64,000 nt of DNA. It comes from Octopus vulgaris (taxonomy: Eukaryota). Below, piece after piece: positions 1-60,352 of this stretch. Position numbers and translations under genes: made by a program. Each line of letters begins with the position of its first letter. Position 1 is the first letter of the stretch. The notes under the pieces are model-generated. The model had not been told where the DNA came from. It ran no database searches and worked only from the letters and a program-made list of their open reading frames with translations. The stretch is taken from the NCBI GenBank assembly GCA_951406725.2, contig OX597814.1:85622001-85686000 (forward strand). Reading direction: 5' to 3'.

Positions 1-289
1 CTACCTACCAGCCTACCTACCTATCTACCAACCAACCTATTTATTTATCCTCCTACCCCTACCACTACTAACAAGAGAGCTTGCAATGCTAGCCACCTAC
101 CATCTCTCTTCATAAATACTAGCACTACAACAATACCAAATACCCACCTACCCTCCACCAGCATCACCACCACCACAACCACTTCCGACTGCACTAACCA
201 CACAAATAATCTCTTGTCTCCTTCCTTATACACTTATTTGTTTCTCCACGTGCAGCCCTTGCCCATCAATCCATCAGTCTTAGGTAAAG

Positions 290-7832: not shown

Positions 7833-7896
7833 ATGGCGAGGCGAAGAAAAAGAAGTATATATGTATGTTTATATATTTATAAGCACCTGTAAGATA

Positions 7897-8138
7897 TATC
7901 TGTAAAATAATATGTGACAATTATTCAATAGCCAAGATAAAACTCTGAGTTTCGGCTGCCGAGGTGGAAATCCACAACACCATCTCTTCGGTTATCTGGC
8001 CAGATAACCGAAGAGATGGTGTTGTGGTTATCTGGCCAGATAACCGAAGAGATGGTGTTGTGGATTTCCACATTGGCAGTCGAAACTCAGAGTTTTATCT
8101 TGGCTACTGAATAATTGTCACATATTATTTTACAGATA
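7897..8138. mobile_element. Fold-back (palindromic) element with a hammerhead-like motif in each arm
   Basis: Near-perfect inverted arms about axis TCTGG|CCAGA at 7999/8000; 36-bp tandem duplication 7990-8025/8026-8061. Confidence 0.85.
8035..8104 (+). ncRNA. Type I hammerhead ribozyme-like motif (CCGAAGA core variant)
   Basis: Stem I AGATAA(8038-43)/TTATCT(8095-8100); core CCGAAGA 8044-50; stem II hairpin 8051-81; GAAA 8082-85; stem III ACTC-A-GAGT; GUU triplet; mirror copy on minus strand at 7931-8001. Confidence 0.6.
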
Positions 8139-8199
8139 AATTCCTCTATTTACATAATATTGAGATTTCTTTCTTTCTTTTGATAGCTTACCGTTTTTA

Positions 8200-8243
<44 letters not shown>

Positions 8244-8637: not shown

Positions 8638-9148
8638 ATGTATGATGTCTGTATACATATAAACATATATGCAACGGATTGCTTCAAACTGACATGTATC
8701 TTCAATGCAAATATTGGTGTATTTATTATATCATATTATGCTGTGCATGTCAAGAAAAGTAATGTGTTTAATATAGAAAGTCAAGAAATTTGCTATATCA
8801 TTTTATTGACCGAAAGTTAGTGAGCTATGAATAAATTGAAAATAGTAAGGGAAGGTATTTGTTTCTTATTTTTTCGTCTTAAAAGCACGGGATCATTTGA
8901 TGTGGAATGCAAATATTGGGTTAGATTCCTTTTGAAGCACTTTCATTTAGACTCTTTCTCAGTATCAGCAACTTTGTGTATATGCCAAAGTTTATTTCCC
9001 ACAGGGAAGCTATGATGGGGCTGAAATATCGATATTATTCTTTGAACTCAGGGCGCAAAGAATCGGAACAAATACTGCAAGGTGTCTATGACTTTAACGT
9101 CTCTGCCAATGTATCCCTTATGATGGAACTAAACTCAGCAAAACTTTT

Positions 9149-10060
9149 ATGAACTTATTCAAATTATCTAGTCTTAAAATTACAATAAATACAAATGTAA
9201 AAAGTAGTAAATTACTCCATATAAGTAAATACCATCCACATCTTAAACTGAATGAAAATACAATTTACATAAATATCGGTTCCAATCACCCAGCTGCAAT
9301 CAGTAAAAATATCGTTAACAATATTAATAGCTGCATCTCCAATCTATCATCATTTAAGGACATTTTCTAATTCTACAAGGCTGAACCATAATATAATATA
9401 ATATAATATAATATAATATAATATAATATAATATAATATAATATAATAATACCTTGAGGAGATCTGGCTTCAGCGACAATTTAGATTACACACAACCTTC
9501 TTCAGCTAGATTCATCAAATGCTAGAACAGGGAAATAATATAATTCAACCCGCCATTCAGTTTAAATGTGGCTACAGACATAGTTAGATGTTTCTTAACC
9601 TTGATAAATGCACATTTTTCTGCATTCAATACGTAGGAATTTCGTTAAAGTAAGCTTGGCATACATTCGAAATATTGTATAATCTATAAGAAGTGCTTCG
9701 AGAGAGAGCCGGTGTACAGAGCAGAAGATACAGACGTGAACAGCACAAAGAGAATATATATATCGACCTTACCGAAAACACTTTCAAGGTCTAGTTTAGA
9801 CGGTACACGTATTCGTTACAACATAAGAATTCTACCTCATTATCAAAATATATCTTACAGGTGAAAGATCAAAAATTGAAAATCTTCCAATTTGGTGGAG
9901 AACAGCCGCAAAAGCAAATAAATACGATGGGTTGTAGCAACTAATGCAAATTCTATATTTCTGAAAGGCTTAACATATTGACTGTACCTACCAATATTCT
10001 TTCTAAACAGAAAGCAAGAGACCAAGAAATTCAAATTACAATCTTTTGAACATATTCCTA
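9149..10060 (+). pseudogene. Penelope-like retroelement fragment (RT thumb, linker, GIY-YIG endonuclease), decayed
   Basis: IYINIGSNHPAAISKNIVNNINSCISNLSSFKDIF; FNPPFSLNVATDIVRCFLTLINAHF; YIDLTENTFK; NSTSLSKYI match PLE ORF motifs. Confidence 0.85.
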
Positions 10061-30975: not shown

Positions 30976-32186
30976 ATGGAAAAGAAAAAGTGAAGCCACT
31001 GCTTTGGAGTGGGAGGTTGTCCCACCCAAGCAGTGGATTAAAGATCTTGAGAAGAGGACGGTGGTACTACGAACCTATTCTAGGTCGCGTGGGGCCATCG
31101 CCCTCTTCGACAAGAACATAATAGAAAAAGAGTTGGCAGACCACCTGCCAACTATAAAGTTTATTTCTCGAGGGACCAAATTTGCAACGGTGTGGTTGCT
31201 GTTTGGTACCCTCGAAGAAGCTAGTAGATTTGCTAGCGATCCCCTTGAGGGAGAGGACGTTTTGTTCCTCCCCTCGTATTGTGGAAGAAAAATAAAAAGA
31301 GCCTGGGTGTGCGGGCTGCCCCCCGGGCACGGAGGCAGGATGGATCGAGGAGACTATCCAGCGAGGCCTGGGAAATAGTGGGTCCAGGCTTTTGAGTGTA
31401 AAAATTACTCCCGCGGTCGGCTGGGAGGGGTCAAACGCAATTTTGACCCTGTGGACCCCGGTGGCCGTGGGGGAGATGATATTCCCAGACTTCCTGAGAA
31501 TGGCCGGGCACAGGTACCCGGTGATACTCGAGAGACGCCCCCCCCCCAAGTGTCACCTGTGCCTGGAGACCGGCCACATTAAGAAGAACTGCCCCAGGGA
31601 CCAAAGTAGGATCCTGGAGCAGTTAATGGTGTAATCTCTCCCTGCTCCCCCAATGGATGGAGAGAACCAGAAGAGTGACGAGGAGGTTGTTACATCCTCA
31701 AAACGTAAAAGAAAGGCGGGCAACAATGGTGACCCACCGAAAAACCCGGGAGCCGCGGAAGAAAAAGAGGACCCGTTGTGTACACAACAGGAACCTCACC
31801 CTCCCGCGGCCCAGGGAAAAAAAGGAAGAAAAAAGAGAAACGGGACGCCGCCGGCGGATTGTAACACGCGGACGGCGTCTCCCAAGCCTCCTCAGGCGAG
31901 TGTGCCGCCGGAGGATAAATATGTGGTCCTCTTCCACAAAGGAGGAACCATTGAAAATGAGATAAGAAAAATGAAAAGGAGAGCCCAATGGGAGGGACTT
32001 CGGTCCTGCACGGAGGACCCTGAGTGGCCTTCACAGGTGGCTGCGGAGGTCCTTTGGGATAGCGATCTGTGCAGGATTGTGAATTCCTTCCCGGAGGACT
32101 CCTATAGATTTGTACCTGTGTGGTCTTGCCTGGAACCGGCTGAGTGCTTCAATAAAGCAAGAGGGCTGGTCGGCCGGGTGACCTGA
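30976..32186 (+). pseudogene. ORF1/gag-like nucleic-acid-binding protein (~400 aa reconstructed) with CCHC zinc knuckle
   Basis: Track ORFs 31004-31378, 31392-31634, 31653-32186 join via frameshifts in an A-run (~30985) and a C-run (~31320) and one in-frame TAA (31632-34); WVCGLPP, FPDFLRMAGHRYPVILE, CHLCLETGHIKKNC, K/R-rich tracts. Confidence 0.85.
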
Positions 32187-36742: not shown

Positions 36743-36863
36743 CATATTACATAGGTATAAAGAAAATCGAAAAACATGATCACAAAAATGCAAAAAATAA
36801 TTATGTATGTATGTATGTATGTATGTATGTATGTATGTATGTATGTATGTATGTATGTATGTA

Positions 36864-36898
<35 letters not shown>

Positions 36899-36912
36899 AT
36901 GTATGTGTATGA

Positions 36913-36940
<28 letters not shown>

Positions 36941-36943
<3 letters not shown>

Positions 36944-37041
36944 TATTCTTATGCGAGAATGTTGTTGACTGCAGTCCGACGATGGCTTAGCTGGTGAAAC
37001 TTTGAAGTCACTGTCAACAACATTCATGTATAAGAATAATA
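36941..37041 (+). ncRNA. Type I hammerhead ribozyme-like motif capping a long hairpin
   Basis: Stem I CAGT(36972-75)/ACTG(37010-13), extended by GAATGTTGTTGA/TCAACAACATTC and TATTATTCTTATGC/GTATAAGAATAATA; core CCGACGA 36976-82; GAAA 36996-99; stem III ACTT-TG-AAGT; GUC 37007-09. Confidence 0.7.
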
Positions 37042-37134
37042 AATTTGTAACCTACAAAAGTATAGAGTAACCCAGCAGATTAATGTAAATTTTTATTATA
37101 ACGGAACGTAAAAGCGAACATTAACATGTGTGTT

Positions 37135-37218
<84 letters not shown>

Positions 37219-38242: not shown

Positions 38243-38849
38243 GTCAAATCACTCTTGAGTGTTACTGGTAACATGTCGGCCGGTACAACCAATGCGATAA
38301 AAAAAAATTAGGCTCGTTAAACACAGCTAAACACAGCCATCCATTTGTGAGCAAATATTCTTGTAAATCCCTGCTGAGTTGTTGGCATCCTTTGGTGGAA
38401 AGAGTGTAGGAGAACGCGCTCTGAAATTAAAACTGGTGATATTCTCACTCAGCCAGTTTCAACAATAGCAAATAGGTACATCTTTCGATATGTTCCTATG
38501 TTCTTTTCTTTGACTCTTAATGAATATGGAAACATCACGAGCTACTCATGATCCCAACATTAACTGGTGGAGACACCTTTTGAGTTTACTTCTCCGTTTC
38601 TCCCCCATTCTCTTACTGGGATCTTGTCCACTCCTGTCGCCTTTCTAGCTGAAAATGACCTGGTGGCCATCAACACCTCTTCTAGACATGGAACTCATCC
38701 ATACTTAGCTCGACGCATCATTTACTTACTTACCCCCTCCAGCGCCCCTCCACACATACAGTAAAACAAAGACTTAGAAAACGTGCTGCAAGATCACATG
38801 GTTAACATACTCTACTTCATTTCGTGATAAATTTAATTCTAGCTTTCAT

Positions 38850-39370
38850 AGAGGAACACTTCCCAACCAGCCATAATTATTCAAGATTATTTCGTAGACA
38901 TAATCTTAAAGTTACAATTAAACCAATAACATGTATAAAATCACACACATTCTGGAAATAAAGTTATATATTCAGGCAGAAACACTAACGCATTGCTATA
39001 ATATATGTATTGCAGCGCAGATGACATCATTTATGAAATGAAGCTTAATACCATAAAAACCTAACATATATGTTTGCACTTCAGTGATACATTGACATTA
39101 CGGAAGGGAAGTCTAATTAAAAATTCTAAGACTATACTTTCTATTTTTGACATATCGATATGAAAATGCTGCAAAATTAGCCGACTACATCTGAAAATCA
39201 AAAGAAAAGTTTCAAAGTACACCATTTGATAAAAGACTATTAAAAGCCTTAAAAGAATGGTAATAAATGTAATTTTTCACTTCAAACAAACACCACTTCC
39301 TCAAAAGTCTACTATGATTAAGAAAAAGTAATTATGACTACTATTTGAATATTAAGTAGGAAATGTTTTG
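38850..39370 (+). pseudogene. Penelope-like relic (linker/GIY-YIG)
   Basis: HFPTSHNYSRLFRRHNLKVT matches PLE HFPxxHxxxKIFNRxxxKVSY. Confidence 0.55.
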
Positions 39371-43791: not shown

Positions 43792-44953
43792 CTATGTTTG
43801 ACTTTTGCTTTATATTTGTACAAGTTGGCTCCAAGTCTCACCCAGAGACCTCAAGAGACAACAGCCTGGAAGTTCATGTTGTTGTTATGCCTAGGGTGCC
43901 ACATATTTGTTTTTTTTGGGGGTGTTGTACTAGTGAATGTCTAAAAAGACAACGAAAATTATGTTTGTTTTAAAACTTGAGATTACATAGAAAGTATTTT
44001 GCGTAGGATATGAGCAGTTCCCATGAGCACTATCTTTTGAATTTCTGCCATTTTGGGGTTTCCTGGTATCTGAGTTAGGTAGCAATCAGCCCCTTTTGCT
44101 ATCATTCCCAGGGCACCTATGACAACAGGTATTGTTTTAGTCTTCAGCTTCCACATTTTGCTGATTTCTATTTCAAGATCTTTATATTTGCTCAGTTTTT
44201 GGTAGGTCTTGACAGATACGTTTATATCAATTGGGACAGTCATATCAATGAGGAGGCATGTTCATTGTCTGAAGTCTTTCAATATGATGTCTGGCCTATT
44301 TGCATCTATCTTTCTGTCAGTTTGAATGGTGAAGTTCCAGAGGAGTGAGATATGGTCATTTTCAAGCACTGGAGGTGGATTGTGTTCCCACCAGTTTTTT
44401 TCATGGGGCAAATCCAGGTTTTTGCAAATTACCCAGTGAATATATTGTGCAGCTCTATCATGCCTGTTGAGGTACTCTGTAGGCGCTAGAAGACTGCATT
44501 TGGAGACAACATGATTAATGGTTTCATTTTGTTGTTGACATACACGACATGTTGGGCTACTGCCGTTCTTTAATATGTTGGCCTGGTAGTTTCTTGTTGG
44601 TAGGCATTGATCTTGAGCTGCTATGGTAACCCCTTCTGTTTCAGATTTTAAGCCAGAGGCCATTAGCCATTGATGGGTAAGGGTTTTGTCAACATCTGCA
44701 TTATTCGCTCTCTTTAGGTATTTGCCACAGAGAGGTTTTTCTTGCCATTTATCAATCAGAATATCTAACGTCGCAGTTTTAGCACGGATTTTCATGCGCT
44801 TAGCTTTTTCTGTGCTTGTTTCTTGTATGTTTAATGCCGAAATTTGTTGTATTCGGAATTCACTTAGATATTCCTTTGCCTGTTTTGTTACTGAGTATGA
44901 TGCTTTCTTGTTTTCATGTTTTGAGACAAGTTTTAACATCAAATCCTGAGAGT
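43792..44953 (-). pseudogene. R4/Dong-like LINE 3' part (CCHC finger and RLE endonuclease)
   Basis: GLKSETEG..AAQDQCL..CRVCQQQNETINHVVSKC..RHD..ANRPDIIL; KLSKYKDLEIEISKMW; (AAT)n on both flanks. Confidence 0.92.
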
Positions 44954-44989
44954 TTATTATTATTGTTGTTGTTGTTGTTGTTGTTGTTA

Positions 44990-46162
<1,173 letters not shown>

Positions 46163-46176
46163 TTATTATTATTATG

Positions 46177-46286
<110 letters not shown>

Positions 46287-47089
46287 CGTTGTCGTTGTTG
46301 TTGTTGTTGTTGTCCAGGATCAATCGTGGACCTTAAGAGCTGTCAGATTCCCACAGCCCTGTGGCAGTCGAGCACTGCGGTTGGTGAATGTTCTACCATG
46401 GCGTTGTAGAGTGGATCAATGGTGGGAAAGGGAGACGACGTTCTCTGGGAATCCCTAGGTGTCAATGGAAATCAACTGGCTGATCTTTAACCGGAGGACT
46501 TTTGGCTGGGAGCCCATAAATAATTCCCTGATCTAGCGGTGCTAGAAACAGTACAACCAGATAGTCTTTGTAGGAAAAACAGAAGTGTAATAGCAGAGAA
46601 CAAAAAATACGACACAGTAACTACGTGAATGGCTCTAAGTGAAGAAAGGCTAAGAGCAAACATCTGGGTTTGCGAGTTGCTTTCATAAGGGTAACGTTGG
46701 ATTTTTCCAGTTGTTCAAATTCCAGTAGTTCAAATTCAAGCAATTTTAAGACGTACGCACAGAAATTACTGTTACAATCAAAGACGCTCATTTACTGATC
46801 TTTACTATAAAGGGAGCTCATACTACGATTTACTACATACTCCCCAAGCATAGGTGGAACCATTTAACAAAAACTCAAAAAAAGTATACTTCATAAATAC
46901 ATGGTTTGAAATATTGCAAAATACAGAAAAGAAAATCACATAAGATTTCAAATATAGTAAATGTCTGTTAGCTTTTTGAGCCAATGTACATGTCTATCGC
47001 TTCTGGTAGTCGTGGTATGTGAAAGCGGACGTGAAGGCAATGTTTAAAAATCTGTGTGTTGTCAGTAGTGGGGGTGGAAATAGTTTTAT

Positions 47090-56611: not shown

Positions 56612-57461
56612 TTAGGTTGTCAAGAAAGTTCTTGCGGAATTTTAAATTTTGGTTTTAAATGTTGTATTTTCAAATTTTTAAAATTAATTTTCGTTAAATT
56701 ACTTTGACTTTATATATCATTTTTAAAGCCCGTTTTTCGCTCTATCTAATTGTGTTACTCTTCTTCTATTTGAATAGTTAGGCCATTTTTTCCTGAACGT
56801 TGAAAACATGTACAAAAAGCAAATTCGCACAATTTTCTTATTACAGTTCAAGCTAGGCCGAAAAGCTGCTGAAACAGCTCGCGATATCAACGATGCGTTT
56901 GGCCCAGCAACCACTAATGAACGTACAGCACAATGGTGGTTTAAGAAATTTCGTAGAGGTGACGAGAGTCTTGAAGATGATAAGTGTAGTGGTCGGCCAT
57001 CGGATGTTGACAACGATCAACTAAGAGCCTTAGTGGAAGTCAATCCAAGCACAACTGTTCGAGAGCTTGCTTCTGAATTAGACGTAACGTATGCAATTTC
57101 CAACTACTTGAAAGAGATTGGAAAAACAAAAATACTTGAGAAATGGGTACCGCACATATTGAACGACAACCAACAAAAAAAACGCCGTTTTGAAGTGTCG
57201 TCCTCCCTTCTCTTACGTAACAAGAACGACCCATTTCTCGACCGGATTGTGACTTGCGAGGAAAAGTGGATTCTTTACGACAACCAGCGTCGCTCAGCTT
57301 AGTGTTTGGACGCCGACGAAGCTCCACGGCACTTCCCGAACCCAAAGTTGCACAAAAGGAGGTCATGGTGATTGGTGGTCTGCGGCCGGTCTCATCCATC
57401 ACAGCTTTTTGGATCCAGGTGAAACCATTACGGCGGAGAAGTACTGTCAGCAAATGGATGA
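56612..57461 (+). mobile_element. Mariner transposon (Hsmar1/cecropia-like), 3'-truncated
   Basis: TA|TTAGGTTGTCAAGAAAGTTCTTGCGG left TIR; transposase from 56808 KKQIRTIFLLQFKLGRKAAETAR..KWVPH..FLDRIVTCEEKWILYDN; stop at ~57300 and frameshifts. Confidence 0.95.
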
Positions 57462-58919: not shown

Positions 58920-60352
58920 CTCTCTGGCACGGTCAGAATAATCTTTCAACAGCATACCTCATTCATGGATCTTGAAATCACTGGATATCTTCAAAATGTC
59001 TCCTGTGATTTCAAAGTTCCTGAAGCACAACATGTCAATGTGGAATACGACTCTAATGTACTACTGGATACAAAAATATTAATATCAACTGCGGCATTTT
59101 CCAAGGTGACTCACTTTCACCTTTAATTTTCTGCATAGCCCTAATATCCCCTACAAGTGAACTTAACAGAACAGGGTATGGATATAAAATTGGCGACGAG
59201 AAAATAAGTCATCATTTTATATGGAGTACTTAAAACTCTATGGCAAAGACGAAAATGAGCTTGAAGCACTACTACGTACTGTGAAAACATCCAGTGATGA
59301 CATCGGGATGGAATTGGTCTTGATAAATGTGCCAAGGCGGCAATTTTTCAGAAAGGGAAATTGAAGACCTCACATTCAGTGATGTTGGATGTTGACACAG
59401 TCATAAAAGAACTCGAGCAGGAACAAACTTACAAATACCTCGGAATAAATGAGGGCTCTGGCATTGAGCATGCAAATATAAAAGAGAAGATCAGGAAGGA
59501 GTGTTACAAGAGAGCTCGAGCAGTCAAAAAATCCGAGATAAATGTACGCAACAAGGTGTTAGCTATAAATTCCTTAGCATTTCCAGTTGTTATTTACAGT
59601 TTCAAAGTGTTAAACTGGAATATGAGCGAAATAAGGAAGATTGACAGGAAAATCTGTAAGCTGCTGACTTGCAATAAGATATACCACCCAAAGGCAGACG
59701 CAGATCGTCTTTATCTACCCAGAGCTCAAGGAGGTCGAGGCTTGATCCAATTTGAAATCTCCTACAAAACCATCACAATTGACCACATCATCTTTGACTG
59801 TCCAGGCCTTTCCAAATCTGAATATATATACAGGCACAACCGAATAAGCAGCTATATCCACTGGATAATATGCCAACAGTTCATTAAATCTGACAATAGG
59901 TGATATAATTATGTGCAAAACAAGGTACAAAACAACGACCAGGCCACAATCATCTGGAATATGCCGGTTCGAACCGACAAAGAAATAAAAGCTAATCGCC
60001 CAGATATTATAATAATCAAGGATTGGGGAAAAAGCACCTGCTTACTGATAGACACTGCAGTCCCTTTTGATCAAAATATTGACGAAAAAGAGATGGAGAA
60101 ATTGTCGAAATACAAAGACCTCGAAATTGAATCCAAATAACCAACGCATTGCACACTCAGCACAGAATACAAGCAATAATGCAACAAAAGACTGCACCAC
60201 ACCCCAAGAAAAAGAATATCTAACGCAATACAATATCGGGAAAAGCTTGCTTACTACCAACAACAGAAAAGAACACACAATGTTGCACGTACTCCAGCAA
60301 CATGGAGGTGTAGCAGGTGATGCAGTAGAAATTTGCCTCAAACTACCATAAA
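58920..60352 (+). pseudogene. R4/Dong-like LINE fragment (RT to RLE) with internal deletion near 59780
   Basis: GIFQGDSLSPLIFCIAL; YKYLGINEG; DRLYLPRAQGGRGL; ANRPDIII; KEMEKLSKYKDLEIE. Confidence 0.93.

Follow-up and report, generated by a model that had tools for sequence, protein, structure and literature searches.

Positions 36941–37124 of the window, meaning the whole 64,000-nt stretch of Octopus vulgaris DNA that was analysed, are identified by sequence comparison as one copy of an old family of Penelope-like retroelements (PLEs), placed in the Hydra clade by protein motifs. Considered jointly, the observations are best, and quite probably correctly, explained by a dead fragment of a Hydra-clade PLE terminal repeat, ~185 bp long and ~10% diverged, in which two cDNAs are joined at their 5′ ends. 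The locus itself is probably no more than a commonplace dead piece of a transposon, ill suited as a test substrate; the statistics of its family bear on the role of PLE hammerheads and on the origin of inverted, one-tailed insertions.

The locus and its hammerhead motif

A sequence-only reading of the window had proposed a hammerhead ribozyme at 36941..37041, and the letters of the window confirm each of its landmarks at the position given: CAGT-CCGACGA-13 nt-GAAA-...-ACTG in register, the GUC triplet of a type I minimal motif, AATAAA downstream at 37038-43, and (TA)n upstream (tract 36802-36941). The core requirements C3...G12-A13-A14, A15.1-U16.1 and H17 are all present, with the sole exception of position 4, which is C here and in the family. 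The motif is not a chance occurrence, since a type I descriptor (core, stem III closing pair and 4-bp stem I) has three matches in the window (36976+, 8044+ and 7991-), whereas 200 dinucleotide shuffles yield 0.02 on average. Between arms 36941-69 and 37013-41, 26 of 29 positions are complementary, and the hairpin folds with z = -6.75, none of 200 shuffles being equally stable.

The Rfam hammerhead model gave no match for 36941-37060 even at E<=10; the same model (RF00163) does match other families in this genome. Over the whole window, the 150 of 302 Rfam matches listed held no hammerhead, only microsatellite-driven miRNA matches. Loose hammerhead-core matches without a proper stem I lie elsewhere in the window at 484(+), 33457(-) and 54993(-), the last of which has stem III letters common to Hydra hammerheads and may be a decayed copy.

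Table 1. Features of the Penelope-like copy and its flanks, in window coordinates
Feature	Position	Strand	Basis
(TATG)n/(TA)n microsatellite, likely insertion target	36802..36940	.	repeat scan; family 3′ ends
Short arm, inverted: corresponds to +4..+32 downstream of the cut, reverse-complemented; supplies the 5′ strand of the long stem	36941..36969	-	27/29 identical to family majority
Arm junction (‘CTG bulge’ region); 3-nt microhomology fits both arms	36970..36972	.	junctions differ between copies
Long arm, direct orientation: terminal repeat starting at -5 (relative to C3), with the hammerhead and the ~85-nt tail up to its end	36971..37124	+	89.9% identity, 158 nt, family majority
Type I minimal hammerhead motif, whole	36972..37013	+	letters, family comparison
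Stem I	36972-75 (CAGT) / 37010-13 (ACTG)	+	letters
Core CCGACGA, C at position 4	36976-82	+	letters
Unpaired U, then damaged stem II region, 13 nt	36983-95	+	letters
GAAA	36996-99	+	letters
Stem III, palindromic, CpG-decayed	up to 37008	+	letters
C17, predicted cut after it	37009	+	letters
AATAAA within element tail; where short arms end (+28..+40)	37038..37043	+	copy comparison
Optional tail, long arms only; leads into ORF in tandem copies	37044..37124	+	copy comparison
(TG)n microsatellite flank	37127..37215	.	repeat scan

The element family and its protein

The 101-nt query has at least 1,443 candidate copies, 40 of which were scored, in a microsatellite-rich genome searched over 2.8 Gb and 227 contigs; one family 17-mer has 370 exact matches (control, 0). 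A majority-sequence element of ~3.3 kb, built stepwise upstream, consists of tail, broken ORF, ~1 kb of untranslated sequence, hammerhead and tail. The hammerhead thus lies about 1 kb 3′ of its ORF and, in tandem copies (loci L069 and L124), directly before the next one, with hammerhead and tail at L124 running into the ORF as in a partial tandem. The broken frames of old-family copies contain RT-like motifs and IVY...YIG, i.e. an RT followed by a GIY-YIG endonuclease. A protein search recovered a young sister family whose 717-aa ORF is intact; the old-family majority is collinear with this ORF over residues 20-713 (30-36% identity, E 3e-64).

The Hydra clade is defined, in the accessible part of PMC8557442, by RWK, DKT, CxCx5C, a cysteine-free GIY-YIG, CxxC and CxH. 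The sister ORF contains RWK (residue 46), DKT, the CxCx5C linker, a cysteine-free GIY-YIG, CxxC and CxH, motif names partly following PMC8557442; decayed copies of the old family still preserve DKT (L095/L121, one locus), the linker (L093), a cysteine-free IVY..YIG (five matches), CxxC and CxH, and RWK was not recovered from their decayed 5′ region. It is on the shared DKT, CxCx5C, cysteine-free GIY-YIG, CxxC and CxH that the clade assignment rests, and by eye the sister ORF resembles Hydra-1_Obim. Assignment to Neptune (Neptune/Nematis) was rejected: no cysteines lie between GIY and YIG (the CCHH motif is absent), and the linker is CxCx5C, not CX2-5CxxC. The idea that RT motif C is inactive in the old family was likewise discarded, other copies retaining the aspartate codon. 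Pfam returned nothing meaningful for 16 ORF fragments or ORFs, and a search of longer proteins with a 94-aa fragment found no homolog.

AATAAA is part of the element tail, and copies appear by eye to end in simple repeats, not in poly(A); a simple repeat adjoins 56 of 76 family 3′ ends, and (TA)n targeting has been reported for Hydra PLEs (PMC8557442, in part). At locus L016:1626-2027 a GIY-YIG-like frame of a different Penelope-like element directly follows a family copy, and within the window the decayed pieces at 9131-9618 and 38839-38943, which match the young ORF by tblastn, are further Penelope-like remnants. Other frames in the window we take to be fragments of non-LTR retrotransposons (44262-45101, 45835-46332, 59301-59903 (-)) and of a mariner-like transposase (56778-57302 (+)); a further frame, at 31635-32186 (+), is GC-rich.

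Loci L159-L164 of the young family (e.g. L161:2822-4972) hold the intact ORF in many near-identical copies, in tandem and inverted arrays, and a 17-mer of its terminal repeat has 6,033 exact matches; in its hammerhead, stem II and G12 are separated by an additional pyrimidine. The window itself contains, at 7856-8208, a head-to-head fold-back of this terminal repeat. Its arms differ in length, one being short and the other long, a 36-nt stretch is duplicated centrally, and its two C4 hammerhead motifs (C3 at 8044+ and 7991-) have their stems intact; the structure also causes a false mir-9 match. Judged by its sequence, this fold-back is a better ribozyme candidate than 36941-37041.

The long stem and predicted activity

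The ‘30-bp stem I’ of the earlier reading is an inverted second copy of the element's own 3′ end, joined head-to-head, and not an extended stem I, since the 5′ arm is the reverse complement of tail +4..+32 and the native 5′ flank of full-length copies differs from it. In a set of 90 loci, chosen solely by a 17-mer downstream of the cut, fold-backs number 42 and six loci extend >45 nt upstream. The CTG bulge, which had been thought to contact loop II, is the seam of this inversion, as the junction differs between copies: across the 42 fold-back loci, the inverted arm has its inner end at positions between -148 and +131, so the bulge is not conserved. The long hairpin is likely a by-product of insertion and not part of the ribozyme.

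The family hammerhead comprises a 5-bp stem I, a 4-bp stem II and a palindromic stem III. In this copy stem II has one C deleted and the next C mutated, and the closing pair is gone; the weak pairing remarked on earlier is damage of its own (-0.3 versus -4.0 kcal/mol for the family stem). Stem III had been correctly typed as palindromic and dimer-forming, but the palindrome itself is lost here with its CpG, the dimer duplex reaching -7.6 kcal/mol versus -12.5 in the family. The hammerhead fold of the core is placed at +3.0 to +3.4 kcal/mol versus -2.9 in the family; ensemble prediction for this copy gives the CAGT/ACTG helix a probability of 4-6% and stem II one of about 1%, with the inverted arm displacing the pairing register. 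The fold is also disfavoured in predicted monomeric family RNA, with stem pair probabilities of 0.03-0.17. By these models this copy is probably an inactive ribozyme, predicted not to cleave, and weak cleavage is predicted for the family ribozyme, as a dimer or with protein help.

An active hammerhead at this locus, with an extended bulged stem I docking on loop II, is accordingly rated as very improbable. Core letters, GUC triplet and 4-bp stem I are intact here, as in only 14/94 family cores, and a long hairpin would keep the ends together; however, that long stem is an inversion specific to this copy, the stem II closing pair and the favourable core energy of the family are missing, and the inverted arm is predicted to move the register, leaving stem I rarely paired.

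Arm ends and the origin of head-to-head copies

The 3′ ends of copies fall into two classes, at +28..40 and at about +110..119. One long and one short arm, hence the optional tail at one end only, are combined in 50 of 53 classifiable hairpin pairs (60 pairs, seven unclassifiable), in 34/36 pairs of a set unselected on the 3′ end (p 7e-9) and in 9/9 head-to-head pairs of the young family; the window copy obeys the same rule. At the other end, 5′ termini cluster at -5..-1, within stem I (28/94 arms; hazard 0.20 versus 0.019 per nt, p 2e-20), as they do in a replicate sample (11/70 arms, p 5e-8), with 13 arms extending further in each sample. The cleavage site forms no peak of ends: of the 70 arms anchored in the tail, a single one ends within +33..37, fewer than background would give, and copies run through the cut. 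Three inverted arms (inner ends 37-38) and the left arm of the window copy stop just 3′ of the cut, and such ends may leave room for some cleaved templates.

The majority sequence contains TATAAAG, its first T lying 31 nt before the A of CAGT, and we take the two to be a TATA/Inr pair. The occurrence of TATA plus Inr within a pLTR has been reported (PMC3846280, in part). Young-family 5′ ends are more spread (-9..-23), without a clear TATA at -31. A TATA conserved among relatives was tried and rejected as weak, TATA at -37..-42 occurring in 6/32 relatives, not clearly above neighbouring windows.

For another PLE studied in vitro, the accessible text of PMC11167929 reports cutting and extension of both strands and reverse transcription initiated at two internal sites, one on either side of the tail; most template RNA there is uncut, and the hammerhead depends on protein. 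A comparable course of events is our preferred account for the octopus families. Transcription would begin near the A of CAGT, 31 nt below TATAAAG, leaving ~3 bp of stem I on the 5′ hammerhead of the mRNA; cleavage would be slow owing to C4 and a stem III that requires a dimer, so that uncut RNA could serve as template. At (TA)n targets the element protein would introduce a nick into each strand, copying would proceed from the +35 and +119 sites to the 5′ end of the RNA, and the hairpin would consist of two cDNAs, one per DNA end and start site, joined by microhomology; two starts of reverse transcription would fit the one long and one short arm of 50/53 hairpins. A bolder reading, which we put forward tentatively, is that PLEs of this genome have repeatedly adopted a throttled C4 hammerhead at the transcription start, which would let uncut RNA persist for use as template, and that head-to-head copies are twin-primed by a protein dimer with one start site per DNA end. 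If this is true, it accounts for the inverted repeats as well as for the one-ended PLE tail, and CUGA-requiring searches have missed thousands of such ribozymes.

The same element could instead form hairpins by self-priming (fold-back) of one cDNA or of an antisense template, with the endonuclease trimming one arm at AT-rich +35. Self-priming and EN-mediated tail resolution have both been proposed (in the available portions of PMC3846280 and PMC8557442, respectively), and in several copies a clean palindrome is centred on the 5′ edge of stem I, although the inner ends of the two arms vary separately, either being the shorter inside, solo arms too end at +28..40, and direct mapping in vitro has revealed two RT starts in another PLE (PMC11167929, in part); we regard this route as rather unlikely. 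Improbable, in turn, is a 5′ wall set by a 3′ splice site, to which CAG at -4..-2 and a branch-like CTAAC further upstream would belong, in place of a transcription start: the commonest single 5′ end is -1 (9/94), and an intron of Drosophila virilis Penelope ends at the 5′ end of helix I (PMC4209133, in part), but a pyrimidine tract is absent, 11/94 arms reach past the AG to -4 or -5, and inspection by eye showed no common upstream exon in front of arms that end at -1.

C at core position 4

The sequence-only reading had listed C in place of U4 as a caveat; C is indeed there, but as a trait of the family and not as damage to this copy. Positions 4-5 of 94 whole old-family cores, picked irrespective of core letters, read CG 26, TG 27, CA 26 and other 15, and the symmetry of TG and CA is that which CpG decay of an ancestral CG gives; on this sequence argument C4 is ancestral in the old family. 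Loci L031-L037, which are near-identical with shared flanks (segmental duplication, contig C10), were excluded from the core counts; they have G at core position 4.

Preferential conservation of the core among copies, a test set beforehand, did not emerge: core bases are kept no better than their neighbours, with changes at 37/464 core A versus 20/373 and at 122/362 core CpG bases versus 130/370, and all core letters are retained in 14/94. A broader comparison found slightly fewer core changes (10.1% versus 12.6%, p 0.005), its controls including the indel-rich tail. A negative outcome is expected where copies decay neutrally, and the pattern of core change among copies is one of neutral decay, uninformative on the source element.

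In the young family, C4 is found in 20 of 21 readable cores (CCGAAGA 19, CCGATGA 1, CTGAAGA 1; 32 arms, 11 unreadable). Two further abundant hammerhead families, at loci L439-L460 and L462-L467, appear to have mixed U4/C4 source lineages: hand counts gave TG 61, CG 22, CA 7 and other 10 in the first 100 of 231 matches of one, and CG 46, TG 41, CA 8 and other 5 in the first 100 of 3,212 matches of the other, and TG far above CA suggests that U4 and C4 sources were both active. No ORFs were found within 1.5 kb beside these two (families 3 and 4). Single copies at L128:8920, L128 minus 750, L171 minus 1165 and L046 minus 726 represent three more C4 hammerhead-like families.

Among metagenome loci of related ORFs, 38/77 have a sense-strand hammerhead match when position 4 is left free, comprising CT 35 and CC 1 (U4 in 35/36), many of the loci being near-duplicates and shuffles giving 0.8; three T3-type matches look like chance, one of them at a locus also having CT. 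The sole C4 hammerhead among these relatives, at L327:1668, has a stem II resembling that of the old family and probably belongs to a neighbouring element. The Hydra rows of File S2, a list of canonical motifs, give a CTGA core in 26/26 (PMC8557442, in part). That C4 arose independently in the two families, old and young, was considered and not adopted: the tree needs two changes and does not separate them, and the old-family branch is very long.

Between the families compared here position 4 toggles, whereas C3, G5, A6, G8, A9 and GAAA are retained, as are the stems, including stem III with its palindrome, a conservation partly built in, as the scans required most of those letters. This bears on a hammerhead vestigial in these families, in which C4 would have spread since cleavage no longer matters. 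U4C, a natural viroid variant, has lower activity in vitro, though infection is still possible with it (PMC3088659, in part); insertion can proceed in vitro without cleavage (PMC11167929, in part); and ends at the cut site are absent as a peak. With the remaining core letters and stems retained around a single toggling position, and with viroid infectivity still supported by U4C, a vestigial ribozyme is possible but doubtful.

Significance and comparison with known systems

PLE terminal-repeat hammerheads, dimer-type stem III, inverted copies and the one-ended tail are already published. Lunse et al., writing in 2017 on PLE hammerhead variants, may already list C4 variants. A literature search, with most subscription papers outside its scope, found neither a family-wide C4 in PLEs, although the supplements of the partly accessible PMC4209133 may list C4 variants, nor a rule of long plus short arms read as twin priming. 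The latter rule, together with the absent cut-site ends, lends genome-scale support to a mechanism known so far in vitro from one element. Because of C4 cores, surveys that look for CUGA count too few hammerheads, and CpG decay has produced some of the apparent CUGA copies. The young family, with its intact ORF, ~6,000 terminal-repeat matches and a natural C4 core, makes both PLE questions testable.

As in the PLE pseudo-LTR hammerheads of type I (Cervera and De la Pena 2014, PMC4209133, in part), stem I is short, an unpaired base lies between A9 and G10.1, the G10.1-C11.1 pair is present, stem III is small and palindromic, and most copies are solo, with close opposite-strand pairs also occurring. 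The families here differ in their family-wide C4; the accessible part of that paper reports a U3-A8 core variant and no C4. The Hydra clade, including Hydra-1_Obim of Octopus bimaculoides (Craig et al. 2021, PMC8557442, in part), shares the C-terminal GIY-YIG without internal cysteines, DKT, CxCx5C, CxxC, CxH, (TA)n targets, a hammerhead 3′ of the ORF, and inverted 5′-truncated copies; unlike the elements described there, those here have a ~1 kb gap between ORF and hammerhead and a tail of ~85 nt instead of 30-40 nt. Poseidon of Anolis (Frangieh et al. 2024, PMC11167929, in part) likewise has two 3′-end classes bounding the tail, AT-rich targets and copies of uncut RNA, but it belongs to another clade and its ORF starts inside stem II, whereas here the ORF apparently starts after the tail.

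The window contains no head-to-tail hammerhead array of the retrozyme type, and sampled copies are solo or head-to-head, in contrast to the head-to-tail tandem units described in the available text on non-LTR retrozymes (bioRxiv 10.64898/2026.07.22.740005), whose type I hammerhead is also derived from PLE terminal repeats. The U4C viroid hammerhead (cited in Perreault et al. 2011, PMC3088659, in part) carries the same core change; there it is a rare viroid variant, whereas here, on the sequence evidence, it would be ancestral in genomic families with thousands of copies.
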